From Candidatus Enterousia sp. (GTDB taxonomy: Bacteria; Pseudomonadota; Alphaproteobacteria; Rs-D84): DNA of 64,000 nucleotides. How positions within the stretch are numbered: position 1 is the stretch's first letter; the number at the start of each line of letters is the position of its first letter. Shown piece after piece: positions 71 to 7,770 of the stretch. Under the pieces are notes generated by a model, which searched no databases, was not told the origin of the DNA, and saw only the letters and a program-made list of their open reading frames with translations. Position numbers and translations under genes: made by a program. The stretch spans positions 2,674 to 66,673 of the forward strand of contig JAZLAZ010000026.1 of the NCBI GenBank assembly GCA_045613445.1, read 5' to 3'.

Positions 71-1360
71 TTATTTTTTTATTTTTTCATACCATTTTTT
101 TGTGTTCTCCCACAAAATTTTCAGGTTATTTTCTATTTTGTCATAGTATTCAGTTGATATCTGAACATTGAATAAAGTCTTGACCAGTGCTGGAATCATT
201 GTCATAAACATTGCCATAAACAGCCCCATCAAGATAATTGTTACAAAAGTGTGGTTTTGCATCATCAATGCGTCTATCAAGAATTTCGAATCGTTTTGTG
301 TCAATGCTGTTTTTAGTGCATCTGCCCCTGACCAGTCACCAAACACGGCGTGCAAGAACATGATTGCAAAGGATACAAATACACCAGTCATTGCGATACC
401 TAATGTTGCAGATATAACATTATCTATGATTGATTTAAGGGATTTGCCAACCCCAGCCAGTGATATTTTCCACCCTTTGAATAGCCATGCTAGTAACATC
501 AGCGGCAGCATTACTAAATCCATGGACAATTTTATGAATACTTCCAAAAAATACAGTGGAATCGGTATCAAGGCCATGAAAAACAGTGCGATAATCATTG
601 CCCCAGCAAAGAATATAATTATGTTTGGAAATATTGGAATGTCCCACATAATTTTATGCATATAATCTGAATCGAATGACATATTTAACATTGTCCACCC
701 AACCGTCATCCCCAGACCTGTCATTTGATGTACACCGGCCAGTTCACATGCCAAATTATGTCGCAGTTTTGGTGAAAAAGCACCGATGTTTGCTGCGCGT
801 TCGTCAATTGATACAGGATCTGCAATCGCAGTTGCAACAACACATTCATCGAAATTGTCATCGTGGACAGCCATACGGTTTAATGTCAGTCCAGCATTAA
901 ATATCGGTTCAATTGCAATGTTTGTAATCAGTCGTGGCAGCGGAGCAATCAATATCGCACATACAAAACCCAATTTGAATAAATGATTTCCAAATGTGGT
1001 TGCAATATCCCATGGTTTATCAAATTTAGAATTTACAAAGTTATCCATAACTGTCCATGTAAACCATATTGCTGTCAATATTATGGCAACTGGTACAATC
1101 GTGTAACCAATTGCACTGTATACGCGTGGTAACAGTCCAGACATTGTCGACATAATATCGGAAAACATTTGGCATGACCAACAACTGGAAAAAAACTTTA
1201 ATGCATCGTTCATATTTACAGGTGTCATTGAACGGTATATTGAAAAACCAACGATTGCGGTTGTACCCGCAATTCCACCGATAACCAGCGGCGAAATCGC
1301 CCCTGCCCCAAAAGGCAAGAACGATAAAAATGCAATCCAAAATTTTTTTAACCGATTCAT
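71..1360 (-). CDS. VirB6/TrbL-like polytopic membrane protein, paralog 1
   Basis: Multiple TM segments; CWSC motif; VirB6-like segment FIKLSMDLVMLPLMLLAWLF; aligns by eye with the four neighbours. Start placed at ATG 1360 (MNRLKK), 8 nt after TGA-TATACT; the ORF track starts at 1390. Confidence 0.6.
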   Translation of the reverse strand: MNRLKKFWIAFLSFLPFGAGAISPLVIGGIAGTTAIVGFSIYRSMTPVNMNDALKFFSSCWSCQMFSDIMSTMSGLLPRVYSAIGYTIVPVAIILTAIWFTWTVMDNFVNSKFDKPWDIATTFGNHLFKLGFVCAILIAPLPRLITNIAIEPIFNAGLTLNRMAVHDDNFDECVVATAIADPVSIDERAANIGAFSPKLRHNLACELAGVHQMTGLGMTVGWTMLNMSFDSDYMHKIMWDIPIFPNIIIFFAGAMIIALFFMALIPIPLYFLEVFIKLSMDLVMLPLMLLAWLFKGWKISLAGVGKSLKSIIDNVISATLGIAMTGVFVSFAIMFLHAVFGDWSGADALKTALTQNDSKFLIDALMMQNHTFVTIILMGLFMAMFMTMIPALVKTLFNVQISTEYYDKIENNLKILWENTKKWYEKIKK

Positions 1361-1426
1361 CACTTTTAAGTATATCATATTTTGTCCCAAATGTGATATA
1401 ATTGAAATAATAATGATACCGAGAGA

Positions 1427-2704
1427 ATGAAATATATAAAAAAACTGTCTTTGTTACTGACTGTTTTTACGGCGTTTTTTATGCCGTCTGTGGCATGTGC
1501 AGGCAATATTGTTGATGCGCTTGATTTGTCGCCATTTGTACCATTGGTACTGGATTCGATGATGATGGTTGCAACGGGTATTTATGAATTCTTTGTTGGT
1601 GATGGTAAACACACAGGAATAATTTATGTTTTGATATGGACTTTCTTGGGGTTATCAATCGTTTTATCTTTGGTAAAGATGTATTTGCCACAAAAATGGG
1701 TATCTTTTTTTGGTTTTTCTGGCGGTGGTGAATTGGCGGACGGCAAAATGACTGCAACCAAGATAGTTGAAAATGCATTAAAACCAGGGTTTCGTGTGGT
1801 TATTGCAACACTTGCATTATTACAGTTAAAGCCTGTTGTTATGACCCAGTGGCTGGTAAATCCGTTTTTGGAATTTGGTTCTATATATACATCGCATATA
1901 TTGTCTGAAATAAATGAAACAAATATCACTGCTAACAAGGTTGCATGCCCAGAAGATATTTTGACCAAGGGTTGGTTGACCAAAGATTCATGTGAATTTT
2001 TGACACAGCCAGTTGCAGATTTATCACATGCAAACAATCAGATTATAAAACGTGGTTTTGAATTTGTTACAAATGGCTTGCGCGGGTTGTTTACGATGGT
2101 GCCACATGGTGGCGAAGATTTTTTGAATTTATTGACAGGTTTAATACTGATTGCCACATTTGTGGGCAGTAATATTTTTATGGCGTTGCTGGTTATCCAA
2201 GGAATATTTAATTTTGGTGCGCAACTGATACTGTATCCATTTTATGTTTTGACATATGTTTTCAAAAGCAGTGACAAATGGTTCGATGTTTGGCCGGCGT
2301 TTTCTGGTGTGACCAAGGCATTACAACAATTGATTATAACAATGATTGCGTGCGCGTTTATTCTGTGTATAAATGTTGCGATTATACATGCGTTATTCAA
2401 GTGGAATTCATCTGTTTTTGTGGTTGCAGCAGGTGGCAGTGCCGTTACGAATCTGCCACAACAGGTCGCGTCGTCATCACTTGGATTTGGTCAGCATTCT
2501 GTACTGTGGTTATCTGCGATAATGACATTTTATCTGATGTTCAAGATATTTGAATTGACGAAAAAACAGTTGGATATGTATGTTGGCAAGGGTATGGACA
2601 CATTGTACAACAATGTTACCAACGATACCAAGACATTGTGGACAAGTACGAAAAAATTAACAAAACAAATCGGTGAAGCAGCAGGTTGGATTAAAAAGAA
2701 ATGA
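1427..2704 (+). CDS. VirB6/TrbL-like polytopic membrane protein, paralog 2
   Basis: Signal-like N-terminus, many TMs, IFNFGAQLILYPFYVLTYVF..W segment, basic amphipathic C-terminus LWTSTKK; ATGA overlap with the next gene. Confidence 0.6.
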   Translation: MKYIKKLSLLLTVFTAFFMPSVACAGNIVDALDLSPFVPLVLDSMMMVATGIYEFFVGDGKHTGIIYVLIWTFLGLSIVLSLVKMYLPQKWVSFFGFSGGGELADGKMTATKIVENALKPGFRVVIATLALLQLKPVVMTQWLVNPFLEFGSIYTSHILSEINETNITANKVACPEDILTKGWLTKDSCEFLTQPVADLSHANNQIIKRGFEFVTNGLRGLFTMVPHGGEDFLNLLTGLILIATFVGSNIFMALLVIQGIFNFGAQLILYPFYVLTYVFKSSDKWFDVWPAFSGVTKALQQLIITMIACAFILCINVAIIHALFKWNSSVFVVAAGGSAVTNLPQQVASSSLGFGQHSVLWLSAIMTFYLMFKIFELTKKQLDMYVGKGMDTLYNNVTNDTKTLWTSTKKLTKQIGEAAGWIKKK

Positions 2705-3903
2705 ATGAAATGATGGTTTCTTTGACGGATAAAGTTATACAGTGTTGGGGCTGTGCTGTTTTTGATCGTCTGTTTCAGATTGTTTCTGTGGCAGCTGCAT
2801 CGGTTTATAATAATTTTACAGGTTTGTGTTTTGTATTGTTTGGATTTTTGTTTACTATATTTATAATAAATGCGATATGGAAAAACATGCGCAGTGGAAT
2901 GTCTGATCCATGGATGAAGGGTTCTGTTCAGAAAGTCATAATAAATTCTATTGTTGCCTTAGGATTGTTGGGAATGGGGGTAACCCTTCCACGTGCGGTC
3001 AGTACAATTATTTTTGAACCTGTTGCTCAGATTACATTATTGTATTCTCAGTCGATGATAAATACCACAGATGAAATTGTTTCTGAAAAGGTTACTTATG
3101 AACCAAAAGAAATTACACAACAAGGAATATACAGACCGGAATTGCGCGATAAAATTATTATGTTGATGAAGACAACTGTAACACAATTCCAGTCATATGT
3201 AAAACTTGGCCTTGCGGTAATGGATAACGCGTTTTCGTGGTCTGCATTATTGGGTGTTGGTGCGTTGATAAAGCATATAATTTTATTTCTTATCGGGCTT
3301 TATTTATCGTGGGGATTTATCAAGATATTTTTCAAATATTGTTGTTATTTTGCAGATGCGATAATTGCGATGGCGTTGTTTGCATTTTTCTTTCCATTAT
3401 CATTGATAATGATGATTTTCAAAGATGCAAAAGAAGTTCCTAAATGGTTCGGTGATATTGGTAAAACAGTTGGTGTTGCCCAGATAAAGAATTTAATCAA
3501 TGCAATTGTTACATTGGGATCTGTGGTTTTGACATATACGGTCATAATGGTAATTGTTGCCAAGTTCTTTTCTGCGCCTGGGGTGTCTGTAAATGGTTTG
3601 ATGGACGCAATAACATCAGGTCAGATATATGCAGACGATTTGAATACTGAAAACTTACAGGCCATGACATTGATTAGTTGTATTGCATTGGTGTATGTAT
3701 TGAATTTTATTTTTTCGCAAATACCGCAAATTACAAAAATGATATTGTCAGCATTTTCTGTCGAAGAAAATACTAAACATGCAGATCAGTTTGCAAATGA
3801 TATGATGACATTGACCAAGGATGCATTTGATATTGCAGTCAAGGCAGGCAAGACAATTATCAGTGGTGGTGAATCCAAGGACGAAAAAAAAGGCAGTAAA
3901 TAG
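2701..3903 (+). CDS. VirB6/TrbL-like polytopic membrane protein, paralog 3
   Basis: N-terminal CWGC motif, FEPV conserved Pro, IIAMALFAFFFPLSLIMMIF..W segment. Confidence 0.6.
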   Translation: MNEMMVSLTDKVIQCWGCAVFDRLFQIVSVAAASVYNNFTGLCFVLFGFLFTIFIINAIWKNMRSGMSDPWMKGSVQKVIINSIVALGLLGMGVTLPRAVSTIIFEPVAQITLLYSQSMINTTDEIVSEKVTYEPKEITQQGIYRPELRDKIIMLMKTTVTQFQSYVKLGLAVMDNAFSWSALLGVGALIKHIILFLIGLYLSWGFIKIFFKYCCYFADAIIAMALFAFFFPLSLIMMIFKDAKEVPKWFGDIGKTVGVAQIKNLINAIVTLGSVVLTYTVIMVIVAKFFSAPGVSVNGLMDAITSGQIYADDLNTENLQAMTLISCIALVYVLNFIFSQIPQITKMILSAFSVEENTKHADQFANDMMTLTKDAFDIAVKAGKTIISGGESKDEKKGSK

Positions 3904-5345
3904 TGTTAAAGGCAAAATTGATATTATTGGCTGTAAAAATCCTGATGTGGGCAATCATATTGGGTGTTGGAATATGGTATTTGTCGTCATCTTTGTCTGG
4001 TACATCTTTGACATATACCAGTGTTGATAACTTTTTAACGGCTGCAGGTGTACAAAATGGTGATATTACAACGGCAAATGGCTGTTTTATGTGTCGATAT
4101 GTTGCTGATTTATTTGGTGTTCTGGGCAATGCCACTGATAAATTTTGGACAGCAATGTTGGATGCGTTATGGATACTGATGGTTGTTGGTTTTGGTGTGT
4201 TTTTATTTGTGCATGCGATTAAACATATTTATGATGCTGCCAAAGAAACATCCAAAGGTGATACTTCTGAGAAAAAAATTGGCTTTAAACCTTGGATTGA
4301 TAAGGTTTGGAAACAGGCGTTGCGTATATTGATTGCAGGTGTCTTGATTGGTGCAGTCGGCATGGGTGGTACAGGAATGTTAAAGACCGTGTCAAATATT
4401 ACGATACGACCTGTTATGTATATTGGTGCAGAATTATCAATGGCTGCAACTGGTATCAGTGATGCGGCGCAATGTAATGCGCTGGAACGCGTATCGATGA
4501 ATTCAACAGATATATTAAATCCGGTATTACAACCGTTTATGTGTGTTGTGGGTAATATAAACAGTGTTATGTTGGCTGGTGCAGCTGGTGGTTTTGCGAT
4601 GATGAATTATGCGTGGCTTGGTTTAGGTGGTGGGATGTTTACCTGGATTGCTGGTTTGGTATTAGTGTTGATGTTTTTAGTAATTGGATTTGATTTATTC
4701 TTTCAAATTTTGTCAGTTGTATTCAAATTGATATTTTTAATAATATTTATGCCATTGTTATTGGCGTCGTATGCATTTGAAGAAACATGGTCGGCGGCCA
4801 AAGGTTTGGTTGGAAAATCTGTTGATATGTTGGTATCCAGTGCTGTTCAAATTGTCGCGATTACATTAAAGGTCTTGATTATATATGCCACAGTATCTTA
4901 CACCGCAGACACATTGTTCCCAGGCAAACAAGATGGTTACAGTGCATTTTTTCCACCGATGATGGGTATGTCGCCAGAAAATCCAGATGCGAAAACATTA
5001 TCAGTTATGAATGTTTTTTCAACATGTGAACAAGTTGCCTTGGTTGATGGTGAAATGGATAAAGATAAATTCAAAGATTGTTTTACCGCGCGCAAGGCCG
5101 AAGTAGAACGCAAATACCCAGGTGCATTTGATTTCTTGAAAGATGGTTGGGATTTCTTGTTGATGATGGTATGTTTGTTCTTGTTGTATTACTATGCAAT
5201 CAGTCCAAAAATTGATAAACTGTTGGTCAAAGAATCAAAAGAATTCTTTGATTTTGGTACATGGATAAAAGATTTGGGAAAACAAGTTTGGAAATTCCCG
5301 ATTGATATGACAAAAAAAATAACAGATGCCATGGGTAAAGAATGA
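3903..5345 (+). CDS. VirB6/TrbL-like polytopic membrane protein, paralog 4
   Basis: GTG start overlapping the upstream TAG; CFMC motif; VFKLIFLIIFMPLLLASYAFEETW segment. Confidence 0.6.
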   Translation: MLKAKLILLAVKILMWAIILGVGIWYLSSSLSGTSLTYTSVDNFLTAAGVQNGDITTANGCFMCRYVADLFGVLGNATDKFWTAMLDALWILMVVGFGVFLFVHAIKHIYDAAKETSKGDTSEKKIGFKPWIDKVWKQALRILIAGVLIGAVGMGGTGMLKTVSNITIRPVMYIGAELSMAATGISDAAQCNALERVSMNSTDILNPVLQPFMCVVGNINSVMLAGAAGGFAMMNYAWLGLGGGMFTWIAGLVLVLMFLVIGFDLFFQILSVVFKLIFLIIFMPLLLASYAFEETWSAAKGLVGKSVDMLVSSAVQIVAITLKVLIIYATVSYTADTLFPGKQDGYSAFFPPMMGMSPENPDAKTLSVMNVFSTCEQVALVDGEMDKDKFKDCFTARKAEVERKYPGAFDFLKDGWDFLLMMVCLFLLYYYAISPKIDKLLVKESKEFFDFGTWIKDLGKQVWKFPIDMTKKITDAMGKE

Positions 5346-6655
5346 TAAAATTGATGCAAAAATTTTTATCGAAACTAATGATTGCTGTTTTGGCGATTGG
5401 TATTTGTGCGCCTGCATTTGGTGCGTCTTCTAATTTACAGATTTCGTCTGGTACAGGAATGGCAGATATTGGTGATTTTGGTACATGGGCAACGGAAAAT
5501 AATCGTAAATTATTTTTAGACAGTATAACATACGACATAGATCAGTTTCGTGGTGAATCCCAGAATCAATTGGTTTCGGATTATGTTCCTGTTGAAGCCA
5601 AGGTTGGCATGGCGTTCATGAATGCGTTTTCTTATATCGCAAACATTTTAGATTCTTCACTGGTGCGCTTTACAATAATTTTCATAATAATTATGTATGG
5701 AATTTGGATAGCTTTGGAATCATATACAGTAATTATTGGTCAAAACAAAGCCAAAGAAAAGGTTCTGGAAATTGGAAAAAATGGTGTCAAAGTTGCGATG
5801 TGGGTCGGGGTTTTGGCAGTTGGCCCAGCAGAAATATTTATGTTGTTGATTTCGCCGATTATGTACCTTGGAACTGTTTTTTCTGATGTTATATTGGATG
5901 CAACTGCATCTGTCGCAGGTATTGATTTGCCGGATACATGTTCTGCGATTCATGAATATGCGCGTGTGCATATTGAACCCCAAAACATAATTGATCCTGC
6001 CAGTGCTGCCAATATAATGTGCGTTCCAACCAGATTGTCCGGATTTTGTTTTTCAGCGGTTAAAATGGGTTGGAATTGGATAAATTATGGTTTTGGACAC
6101 AGTGGATTTGCTGTGTTGTGTGGAATTGCATTTATTGGCGGATTTATTTATCTGGCATGGAAATTTGCATTTATGGCATTTGGTGTTATCGCGGAATTAT
6201 TCTTAGGTATAATCATGTTGCCATTTACAGCGTTGACTGAAACAATAGGAAAAACAACATACAAGGGCATTACGGGAAATATTTATACAGGATTTACAAA
6301 ATTATTCAGTGCGGAATCATTTAGTTCACAAATAGGTCGCTTTGTAAATGCAGCCTTGCACTTTATTGTATTGTCGATTGTTATTGCAATATGTGCGGCA
6401 TTGCTGTCCAGCATAATTACAACAGATAATGCAGCCATGGTTCCAAAATTAGATGATCAGGGTTTTTGGGTTACGGCATTTGTGTCGGCGTTGACATGGT
6501 GGTTGGCCAGCAATGCGTCAAAATTTGCAAATGATATCGGTGGCAAGATTTCAACTGGAATTGGTGATAATCTGAAACAAGACGCGTCTAACCTGTGGCG
6601 TAGCACAAAAAGTAACGCCAAAACGATTGTTAAAATCATTAAAAAATCAAAATAG
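5342..6655 (+). CDS. VirB6/TrbL-like polytopic membrane protein, paralog 5
   Basis: Signal-like N-terminus, ISPIMYLG, Cys pair (DTC..IMC), IAELFLGIIMLPFTAL segment, LWRSTK basic tail; ATGA overlap. Confidence 0.6.
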   Translation: MIKLMQKFLSKLMIAVLAIGICAPAFGASSNLQISSGTGMADIGDFGTWATENNRKLFLDSITYDIDQFRGESQNQLVSDYVPVEAKVGMAFMNAFSYIANILDSSLVRFTIIFIIIMYGIWIALESYTVIIGQNKAKEKVLEIGKNGVKVAMWVGVLAVGPAEIFMLLISPIMYLGTVFSDVILDATASVAGIDLPDTCSAIHEYARVHIEPQNIIDPASAANIMCVPTRLSGFCFSAVKMGWNWINYGFGHSGFAVLCGIAFIGGFIYLAWKFAFMAFGVIAELFLGIIMLPFTALTETIGKTTYKGITGNIYTGFTKLFSAESFSSQIGRFVNAALHFIVLSIVIAICAALLSSIITTDNAAMVPKLDDQGFWVTAFVSALTWWLASNASKFANDIGGKISTGIGDNLKQDASNLWRSTKSNAKTIVKIIKKSK

Positions 6656-6673
6656 TCTATTTGTATCTATGCC

Positions 6674-6702
6674 TTGAAAACTGGAAAGTTATATTTTATA
6701 CT
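6674..6702 (+). promoter_or_regulatory. sigma70-type promoter of the lptF operon
   Basis: TTGAAA (6674-6679), 17-nt spacer, TATACT (6697-6702); ATG at 6712. Confidence 0.55.
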
Positions 6703-6711
6703 TCGTATAAC

Positions 6712-7770
6712 ATGAAGATTCTAAACAGATATTTTTTGCGTCAATTGGTCGCTATTTTTATTATGCTGTTACTGGTTTTAACGGGGCTGGCATGGATGAT
6801 GCAAATCATGTCTATGATGAAGTTTTTATTAAAATACGGCGTTGAATTGGACAGTTTTTTGGGTCTTACTTCATTGATGATACCGTTTATTGCATCAATT
6901 GTTATACCGTTTGTATGCTTTATCGCTGTTATTTTTGTATATAACAAACTGATTTCTGATAACGAAGTAACTGTTATGGCTGCGTCTGGGCTGTCGCCAT
7001 TACAGATTGCAAAGCCTGCATTAAAATTGGGTATGATTTTGACTGTTTTGAATTTGATGTTAAACATATGGATTGTTCCACAAACTCAGGCATTGTTTTA
7101 TGATATGCAGTGGAATATGAAATATGGTATGGCACACATGAAGTTACAAGAAGGTGCATTTACAGAAATATCAGATGGGCTGGTTGTGTATGTTGAACAG
7201 GTATCAGATCATGATTTGAATCAGATAATGTTGTCTGATATGCGTCACAATAATTCTTCAAATACAATATTTGCAGAAACTGGCAAATTGGTAACGACTG
7301 TTCGTGGTTTATCATTGGTGATGAAAAATGGTGCGTTGCAGTTCAGTGGTAATCAAACTGTTTCGGGTACATTTGATACATTTGATATGGATTTGAATGT
7401 TGTTGAAAAAGGTGCAGGTAATTCTTTTCGTGTTCGTCGTATACCGACAATGGATTTGTTGCGTGTTGCGTTTGATGCAAAAACACAGCGTCAACATAAA
7501 ATGGTGTTAAACGAACTGTGTAACAGATTTTTAACACCATTGATGAATTTGGTATTGGCGGCATTGTGTGCGACGATATTATTGCGTGCATCATTATTAC
7601 GTCGTCGTGCCAGTCTTGCACCTGCGGTTGCTGTTGGTGCGATGGCTGGTGTAATGGGATTATATATGACATTGACAAATGTTATTGGCAGTTTGACTGG
7701 GTTTGGTATTTTGGCAATTGGAATTTGTTTGTTTTTTGGGTGTATATTGATGATGTTGGCAAAGAAATGA
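6712..7770 (+). CDS. lptF: LPS export ABC transporter permease LptF/LptG family
   Basis: MKILNRYFLRQL start, YNKLISDNEVTVMAASGLSP motif, 3+3 TM layout, directly upstream of lptD. Confidence 0.85.
   Translation: MKILNRYFLRQLVAIFIMLLLVLTGLAWMMQIMSMMKFLLKYGVELDSFLGLTSLMIPFIASIVIPFVCFIAVIFVYNKLISDNEVTVMAASGLSPLQIAKPALKLGMILTVLNLMLNIWIVPQTQALFYDMQWNMKYGMAHMKLQEGAFTEISDGLVVYVEQVSDHDLNQIMLSDMRHNNSSNTIFAETGKLVTTVRGLSLVMKNGALQFSGNQTVSGTFDTFDMDLNVVEKGAGNSFRVRRIPTMDLLRVAFDAKTQRQHKMVLNELCNRFLTPLMNLVLAALCATILLRASLLRRRASLAPAVAVGAMAGVMGLYMTLTNVIGSLTGFGILAIGICLFFGCILMMLAKK

Follow-up and report, generated by a model that had tools for sequence, protein, structure and literature searches.

Five adjacent genes, A to E, lie at the start of the window analyzed here, a stretch of 64,000 nucleotides from Candidatus Enterousia sp. 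(GCA_045613445.1, contig JAZLAZ010000026.1, positions 2,674 to 66,673 of the forward strand). They are interpreted, with moderate confidence, as five ancient and non-redundant VirB6 paralogs that serve one chromosomal, scattered type IV secretion system (T4SS) and that probably co-assemble. The firmest part of this interpretation is the family itself. A–E very probably belong to the VirB6/TrbL family, an assignment that is based on profile searches, on the fold of A and E, and on a T4SS gene set that is otherwise devoid of VirB6. The initial annotation, which was made from the DNA letters and a list of open reading frames (ORFs), had called the five genes VirB6/TrbL-like paralogs, and the same evidence supports this call well. 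All five proteins are homologous to VirB6/TrbL at the level of profiles and are predicted to take on a VirB6 fold, which was modeled for A and E.

In the ORF list, the five genes lie next to each other with A divergent from B–E, as the initial annotation had described. Gene A (71-1390, 439 amino acids (aa), array position 1) is encoded on the minus strand and is separated by a divergent, strandless intergenic region of 36 bp (1391-1426) from the operon B–E on the plus strand, which consists of B (1427-2704, 425 aa, position 2), C (2701-3903, 400 aa, position 3), D (3903-5345, 480 aa, position 4, GTG start), and E (5342-6655, 437 aa, position 5). The single proteins are thus 400-480 aa long and amount to 2,181 aa in total. 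The DNA reads ATGA at the B/C and D/E junctions and TAGTG at the C/D junction, and the resulting overlaps of 4, 1, and 4 nt bear out the translational coupling that had been claimed for B–E. The consensus of the A family begins with MxYLK, which makes the ATG at 1378 the probable true start of gene A, four codons downstream of the TTG that was listed. Promoter-like hexamer pairs are found around the A/B gap on both strands (plus strand, 1382-1411; minus strand, 1440-1413), but a promoter and terminator scan of the region returned 36 sites vs 30.6 ± 5.0 in shuffled sequences, which is not above chance.

The five proteins share a common layout, and each set of motifs quoted in the initial annotation is present and falls into the same columns of a merged alignment of the five families. 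A conserved proline motif (IEPI at A160, VNPF at B144, FEPV at C105, IRPV at D168, ISPI at E170) is followed by a proline-containing hydrophobic helix (VMLPL at A293, ILYPF at B268, FFFPL at C229, IFMPL at D281, IMLPF at E291), and four proteins end in a tryptophan-containing basic tail (LWENTKK at A426, LWTSTKK at B404, VWKFP at D462, LWRSTK at E418). A nearly or fully invariant tryptophan is located behind the proline-containing helix in A (W302 and W307), B (W285), C (W249, 36 of 37 sequences), and D (W296) and is missing in E; the alignment contains no reference VirB6. VirB6/TrbL proteins are described as harboring a conserved, functionally essential tryptophan in their transmembrane-cytoplasmic region (PMC2653234). 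Gene D additionally carries a cysteine-rich insert ahead of the last helix in the merged alignment. A CxxC motif marks the N-terminal border of the VirB6-fold region in A (C70/C73, CWSC, window 1171-1182), C (C15/C18, CWGC, 2743-2754), and D (C61/C64, CFMC, 4083-4094). It is invariant in these three families and absent from B and E, and both cysteines are also invariant in the position-4 orthogroup as compared over three families.

Paralogy and family membership

The relationship among the five proteins is remote and was followed from single sequences to profiles. The genome has 3,687 ORFs of 60 aa or more, among which C, B, and D are the best non-self matches of A, and the pairwise BLAST alignments are weak but collinear (A–C, 47 bits over 382 residues; D–E, 38 bits; A–B, 34 bits; A–D, 30 bits). 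Family alignments, A1 to A5, were built with one alignment per gene and 34-36 orthologs each (35 sequences in A1). Comparison of these alignments with hhalign yields 97.8% for A–C (342 columns), 95.0% for B–E (288 columns), 94.5% for A–D (270 columns), 92.9% for A–E (287 columns), and 86.4% for D–E (226 columns), with the remaining five pairs at 0.9-75% over 70-339 columns. Since these links join the five alignments to one another, all of A–E are connected, B most weakly, and the profiles indicate that the proteins are paralogs beyond chance. The best-conserved paralog is D, with a mean column identity of 68% in alignment A4.

The connection to TrbL becomes visible in a sister family of the same order. 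Six families of the order Rs-D84 were sampled, designated f1 to f6, with f1 being the family of the window. The Pfam TrbL model (PF04610, gathering score 25.9 bits) matches 17 of 19 genomes of family f3 vs none of 71 genomes of f1, and the f3 matches fall into arrays of five tandem genes. In these arrays, gene 1 exceeds the TrbL cut-off with 28.1 and 26.1 bits, and one gene 4 reaches 29.9 bits in the six-frame search vs 19 bits, below the cut-off, by protein hmmscan. The f3 genes are in turn linked to those of the window. The hidden Markov model (HMM) of the D family matches f3 gene 4 with E-values of 1e-23 to 2e-29, and hhalign relates D to gene 4 (99.7% over 431 columns), A to gene 2 (98.2%) and gene 5 (98.1%), E to gene 3 (96.8%), and C to genes 2, 3, and 4 (95.5-96.7%, with gene 4 at 96.7%). 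B aligns to f3 gene 1 at 91.0%, over the stretch that is matched by Pfam TrbL in that protein.

Distant relatives lead to the same family. At least 918 homologs of A are found at E ≤ 1e-3; the best 120 of these 918 share 66% identity or more, lack Pfam domains, and are all named “hypothetical protein,” and 10 distant matches are likewise uninformative by name. A search of 1.84 billion representatives with the profile of family A gives 333 matches at E ≤ 1e-3, of which 83 reach E ≤ 1e-10. From the distant matches, 65 proteins of at least 300 aa (block P0156-P0235) were scanned with Pfam. TrbL is detected at E ≤ 1e-3 in 23 of them, 8 above the cut-off, and no other recurrent membrane family occurs among the 65. 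Apart from TrbL, a single domain recurs, namely an N-terminal Peptidase_M23 that is fused to the VirB6-like region in eight proteins of 589-1497 aa (P0195, P0200, P0203, P0211, P0219, P0221, P0226, and P0232). Five of the eight match TrbL at E ≤ 1e-3, and P0200 also possesses a VgrG3-like C-terminal domain. These fusions look like VirB6 joined to a cell-wall hydrolase.

AlphaFold2 models were obtained for A (predicted local distance difference test (pLDDT) 68.5, predicted template modeling (pTM) score 0.59) and E (pLDDT 70.8, pTM 0.60). In Foldseek, chains of TrwI, the VirB6 of plasmid R388, occupy ranks 2, 3, 4, and 8 in the search with A, and 1-7 and 9 in the search with E. The probability is 0.99-1.00 for A and up to 1.00 overall, and the best chains have template modeling scores of 0.47-0.51 by target (up to 0.50 for gene E), where unrelated rows score about 0.1; all E-values for TrwI lie above 1e-3, the best being 6.6e-3 for gene E. 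A structural aligner that is independent of Foldseek, VIA-align, places the TrwI chain 7o3v_F first of 48,161 chains for both models, with a Z-score of 12.8, a root-mean-square deviation (rmsd) of 5.2, and 251 of 261 residues aligned for A, and a Z-score of 11.8, an rmsd of 4.6, and 250 of 261 residues for E. The Legionella protein DotA follows as second or third best match (Z 8.8 for A and 8.7 for E). The structural comparison of A and E with VirB6/TrbL and DotA, which the initial annotation had proposed as a check, therefore ends at VirB6 first and DotA next, with no unrelated membrane family.

TrwI (PDB 7o3v, 8rt9, and 8rtd) is described as a homopentamer at the base of the T4SS stalk that bears a VirB5 pentamer. 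Both models match TrwI best and cover about 250 of its 261 modeled residues. TrwI differs in being encoded by a single gene, in forming a homopentamer, and in being capped by the VirB5 pentamer. Sequence identity to A and E in the structural alignments is 8-16%, and the proteins of the array are longer at the N terminus by a hydrophobic segment of roughly 60-80 residues. In the Legionella Dot/Icm type IVB secretion system, DotA (PDB 9ngy) forms, according to the structural description, a pentameric central protochannel with IcmX and is the counterpart of VirB6. With 857 modeled residues it is much larger than A–E, it is single-copy, it pairs with the VirB5-like IcmX, and no link was found at the sequence level. 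In a feature search of the ESM Atlas, the nearest named clusters to B are CtnDOT_TraJ (0.90-0.92) and TrbL (0.90), and A reaches 0.88, a result that serves as a lead only. CtnDOT_TraJ (PF07863) stands for the TraJ proteins of Bacteroides conjugative transposons. It is the nearest named cluster family for both B and A, and some of its clusters also carry TrbL. The likeness is a lead from a language model, and TraJ proteins are single-copy conjugation proteins of another phylum.

Some results speak against the assignment to VirB6. At E ≤ 1, A–E match neither Pfam TrbL nor any model of NCBIfam, and no VirB6 is found among the PDB sequences that were searched with the profiles A1, A4, and A5 (hmmsearch, E ≤ 10), which returned chance matches only. 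The fold evidence comes from A and E alone, with moderate pLDDT values of 68.5 and 70.8, and the aligner notes that, in helical proteins, a Z-score under about 13 can stem from nothing more than a shared arrangement. Since such Z-scores can be nonspecific in helical proteins, the fold argument stands on coverage, rank, and agreement with the sequence evidence. Moreover, B is the weakest-linked of the five in hhalign, and its link to TrbL is indirect only.

These results raise the question of whether A–E could be a membrane family outside the T4SS, for example a transporter or a factor that works with lptF/lptD in envelope biogenesis, that merely resembles VirB6. The missing Pfam and NCBIfam matches and the potentially misleading Z-scores of helical bundles would fit this explanation, as would the surroundings of the array. 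No T4SS gene adjoins it, and lptF directly follows E in the window (6661-7770, Pfam LptF_LptG, 184.7 bits), as had been annotated. For lptF, translation probably begins downstream of the TTG that was listed; Pfam aligns only from residue 23 onward, and an ATG (MKILNRYF...) is available at about 6709. The adjacency is not conserved, however. In the 37 related loci that were compared, lptF follows E in two only, and the functional link of the array to lptF/lptD was rejected for this reason. The profile of A leads to TrbL-bearing proteins but to no further membrane family, two separately modeled paralogs both have VirB6 as their closest structure with DotA as second or third, and orthologs from the sister family pass the TrbL cut-off. 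A family foreign to the T4SS is accordingly considered very improbable.

Conservation of the five genes in Rs-D84 and beyond

Within family f1, the array is kept throughout. The related loci come from metagenome-assembled genomes of animal and human guts, and their orthologs range from 91% down to about 40% identity. Inverted A followed by B, C, and D is kept in all 37 loci as single orthologs in the same order, and E is present in 36, the contig of the 37th ending before E would be reached. An ortholog of A is found in all 71 sampled f1 genomes. The junctions are kept as well, with an overlap or a gap of at most 20 nt between B and C in 35 of 37 loci, between C and D in 34 of 37, and between D and E in 36 of 36. 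The spacing between A and B is below 80 bp in 34 of the 37 loci; in L036, L037, and L038, 0.2-3.7 kb are inserted at this site. Three relatives were used to estimate the ratio of nonsynonymous to synonymous substitution rates (dN/dS), which comes to 0.06-0.10 in A, 0.08-0.17 in B, 0.08-0.12 in C, 0.08-0.13 in D, and 0.16-0.24 in E, the fastest-evolving paralog; these values are approximate because dS is near saturation. Such ratios indicate purifying selection on all five genes. Together with their retention, this marks A–E as non-redundant and as each indispensable over evolutionary time.

A five-gene array occurs in all six sampled families of the order. Outside f1, 11 genomes of f2–f6 were examined, and nine of these contain five co-directional tandem genes (four genomes of f3, two of f6, and one each of f2, f4, and f5). 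In one f2 genome the five genes are split 2+3 over two contig ends. In one f6 genome, which is 72% complete, gene 1 and the position-4 gene lie on different contigs. Three array members, which no HMM matched at E ≤ 1e-3, were included on the basis of their position alone. The choice of profile matters at this distance. The narrow A1 profile and Pfam TrbL missed f2, f4, and f5, whereas a broader profile of the position-4 orthogroup finds an ortholog in all five genomes tested. The initial genome search also missed the D ortholog in L061, which was found by hmmsearch, so that a blank in that search does not show a gene to be missing. The genes of f4 and f6 run A-like, B-like, C-like, D-like, followed by a fifth, which in f6 resembles E. 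The A-like gene comes first in a co-directional array in f4, f5, and f6, and gene 1 is inverted in family f1 only. The homologs of the other families are unequal in size (409-986 aa).

The age of the five copies was judged from a tree of 60 array genes from the six families and four TrbL-bearing outgroups (quick search, 417 columns), with which a first tree agrees. The array positions, mapped as labels onto this tree, require 6 changes vs a minimum of 5, compared with a mean of 40.7 for shuffled labels, and none of 200 shuffles is as low. Position 4 forms one clade in both trees (support 98* and 95*), the genes at position 2 from all six families group into a single clade (support 88), and C groups with position 3 of f4, f5, and f6 (support 91). 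The phylogenetic group of a gene can thus be predicted from its place in the array, which dates both the duplication into five copies and their arrangement to before the origin of the order Rs-D84. The initial annotation had asked whether copy number varies freely among relatives; it does not, and five orthogroups are found in a fixed order across Rs-D84.

Beyond the order, the position-4 profile has matches in 23 of 298 other alphaproteobacterial genomes, mostly of 0.9-2.5 Mb and usually with several genes in tandem.

The scattered T4SS and its relation to Rickettsiales

The genome of the window is a 961,597-bp assembly of 27 contigs that is 95% complete and belongs to the order Rs-D84. Enterousia has been placed in this uncultured order, all members of which are reported to have reduced genomes (PMC12306168, 2025). 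That paper deals with the metabolism of Rs-D84 genomes, and the words “secretion” and “VirB” are never used in it.

The genome encodes VirB3, VirB4, VirB8, VirB9, VirB10, and VirD4, all above their Pfam cut-offs, and none of these genes adjoins the array. The genes virB3-virB4 are located on a different contig from the array, at C13:36554-39273 (virB4 at C13:36554-38986), which agrees with the initial statement that neither lies beside the array; virD4 is found at C13:91648-93297 and virB8-virB9-virB10 at C24:1706-6376. A 333-aa ORF of the T2SSE family is a VirB11-sized ATPase and could represent VirB11. A six-frame search of the whole genome with Pfam TrbL returned 0 matches at E ≤ 1, so that the T4SS would lack a recognizable VirB6 unless A–E supply this role. 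A recognizable VirB5 is likewise missing, with a best PF07996 score of 12.9 bits vs a cut-off of 24.7 bits in a genome that is 95% complete and for a protein family that is diverse, and VirB2/TrbC has no match in the genome. No second VirB4 was found with Pfam or with BLAST against all ORFs, and a single VirB9 was found; a highly degenerate second copy could escape. A second VirB8 candidate (C7:28416-29114) scores 16.2-16.3 bits, below the cut-off of 23.2 bits. Across the order, 100 of 101 sampled genomes contain VirB4, with one match per genome, and because of this distribution the T4SS looks like a core trait of Rs-D84.

Some components of the system have unusual forms. The VirB9 homolog (C24:2423-3943) has 506 aa and ends in a C-terminal, peptidoglycan-binding SPOR domain (22.5 bits vs a cut-off of 21 bits), and the VirB10 homolog (C24:3974-6376) has 800 aa, with the TrbI domain confined to residues 387-592. 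The usual forms of VirB9 and VirB10 are much shorter. Directly downstream of virB4 lies a 204-aa ORF on the minus strand (C13:35937-36551) with a signal-peptide-like N terminus and no Pfam family. It occupies the place of the virB6 array of Rickettsia and could be an unrecognized T4SS component. A 166-aa ORF on the minus strand of the same contig (C13:33838-34338) has a match to Mtd_N, the N-terminal domain of the major tropism determinant, with 40.4 bits. This domain is familiar from the targets of diversity-generating retroelements.

The closest known parallel to A–E are the rvhB6a-e arrays of Rickettsiales, of which the array is a compact relative. Rickettsia carries five virB6 genes that are about 80% divergent from each other and whose VirB6/TrbL domain averages 413 aa, within RvhB6 proteins of 674-1154 aa that have large flanking extensions (PMC2653234). 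Multicopy VirB6, duplicated VirB4, VirB8, and VirB9, and the absence of VirB5 are described as hallmarks of the rvh system (PMC2653234, PMC8035066, PMC11077975). Both systems have a tandem array of four or five extremely diverged VirB6/TrbL paralogs, and they also share a reduced alphaproteobacterial genome, T4SS genes in scattered islets, and the retention of the copies against genome reduction; VirB5 is described as absent from rvh, and none is recognizable here. The 413-aa domain of Rickettsia corresponds to about the whole length of A–E, which are domain-only proteins of 400-480 aa without the flanking extensions of RvhB6 and which, unlike those, are invisible to Pfam TrbL. The array is moreover detached from virB3-virB4, to which that of Rickettsia is joined in islet A; on C13 the next gene after virB3-virB4 is the 204-aa ORF, which is unrelated. 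VirB4 and VirB9 are single-copy here, although their duplication is a hallmark of rvh, and the organism belongs to Rs-D84 rather than Rickettsiales. By the published hallmarks, the T4SS described here is thus not of the full rvh type, though it is putatively alike in its working.

Models for the assembly of the five paralogs

In the favored interpretation, the products of A–E would be made in similar amounts, which is probable given that the genes show translational coupling and presumably joint transcription and that no single one of them is ever lost. The proteins may assemble together into the stalk/translocon of the T4SS as mixed VirB6 oligomers. The simplest form would be one pentameric ring with one copy of each paralog, the simplest model because VirB6 is pentameric in R388, and such a mixed ring would take over the role of the VirB6 platform in a system without VirB5. 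A homo-oligomeric ring of a secretion channel would in this way have turned into a hetero-oligomer via duplication and drift of the interfaces. Confidence differs between the versions of this model. Some form of co-assembly is given a nearly even chance. A strict 1:1:1:1:1 VirB6 ring of A–E, proposed by analogy with R388, is possible but doubtful, and equally doubtful is an obligate ring of this kind with a fixed subunit order that was set before Rs-D84 diversified.

Several observations count against five co-assembling paralogs of such age and constancy. Positions 1 and 3 are not single clades in the tree, though they are split by no starred branch, position 5 forms one side of a branch with a support of only 68, and the trees come from quick searches on strongly diverged sequences. 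The array lies apart from virB3-virB4 in this genome and in families f2, f4, and f5, and the surroundings of virB4, out to about 8 kb, contained no VirB6-like gene in the four genomes that were inspected from these three families. Co-assembly itself is purely inferred. The number of genes also varies outside the order. Tandem arrays in six loci outside Rs-D84 hold 5, 5, 5, 4, 4, and 3 genes (two further loci show 2 genes each on the contig examined), Ehrlichia has four VirB6 paralogs (PMC8035066), and, in Gillespie et al. 2009 (PMC2653234), R. massiliae is described as lacking virB6e and Anaplasmataceae as having no virB6e ortholog. Five copies are consequently not a universal requirement. Of the idea in the initial annotation that five non-redundant paralogs could each fill one ring position, the fixed set of five holds within Rs-D84, and its extension to a general rule is weakened by the arrays of 3-5 genes and the absences of virB6e.

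Variation in copy number would be easier to accommodate if each paralog formed a VirB6 ring of its own, so that five interchangeable machines would serve different substrates, targets, or conditions. The homopentamer of R388 VirB6 is a precedent for such independent rings, and homogeneous complexes of single paralogs are listed as an alternative for Rickettsia (PMC8035066). The organization of the genes argues otherwise. B–E form one translationally coupled operon that leaves little room for separate regulation, and in genomes of 0.7-1.1 Mb none of the five genes has been lost, as seen in the 36 of 37 f1 loci whose contigs extend far enough and in 10 of 11 genomes of the other families. A single VirB4 and a single VirB9 were found as partners, furthermore, for what would be five machines. 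Independent homopentamers are hence judged quite unlikely. The interaction of four Ehrlichia VirB6 paralogs is the reported subject of Bao et al. 2009.

The paralogs could also divide the labor within one machine, with one or two of them forming the base ring and the others adding further layers in the form of homo-oligomers, stacked or accessory, such as a distal stalk that replaces VirB5 or a platform for pilin-like subunits. The lack of a detected VirB5 leaves room for this proposal, considering that the VirB5 pentamer of R388 sits on the VirB6 pentamer. The paralogs are also individually marked, with CxxC motifs confined to A, C, and D, the cysteine-rich insert confined to D, and the conserved tryptophan present in A–D and not in E, and their homologs in other families of Rs-D84 differ greatly in length, from 409 to 986 aa. 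Nevertheless, the five proteins share their core layout over the whole length, and A and E both align to nearly all of TrwI. Such a division is judged unlikely. The reading preferred here remains that of five VirB6 paralogs that probably act together in one T4SS.

The question of why Rickettsiales keep four or five diverged VirB6 proteins was raised in 2009 (PMC2653234), and mixed and single-paralog complexes were still listed side by side in 2021 (PMC8035066). No paper that pairs VirB6 with a heteropentamer was found in the literature searched. The array of Enterousia presents the same multi-VirB6 phenomenon in a different, uncultured gut lineage and in its most stripped-down form, with domain-only proteins in a fixed order and with coupled genes. 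Automated annotation would score the T4SS of this genome as lacking VirB6, because Pfam misses all five genes. The system is near-universal in the reduced-genome gut order Rs-D84. The number of paralogs equals the pentameric stoichiometry of VirB6 that was solved in 2022, and this match makes the heteropentamer hypothesis concrete and cheap to test. If true, an obligate heteropentamer would also explain the multi-VirB6 arrays of Rickettsiales, and the short, domain-only proteins of Enterousia, with 2,181 aa in total, would be the most tractable system for its demonstration.

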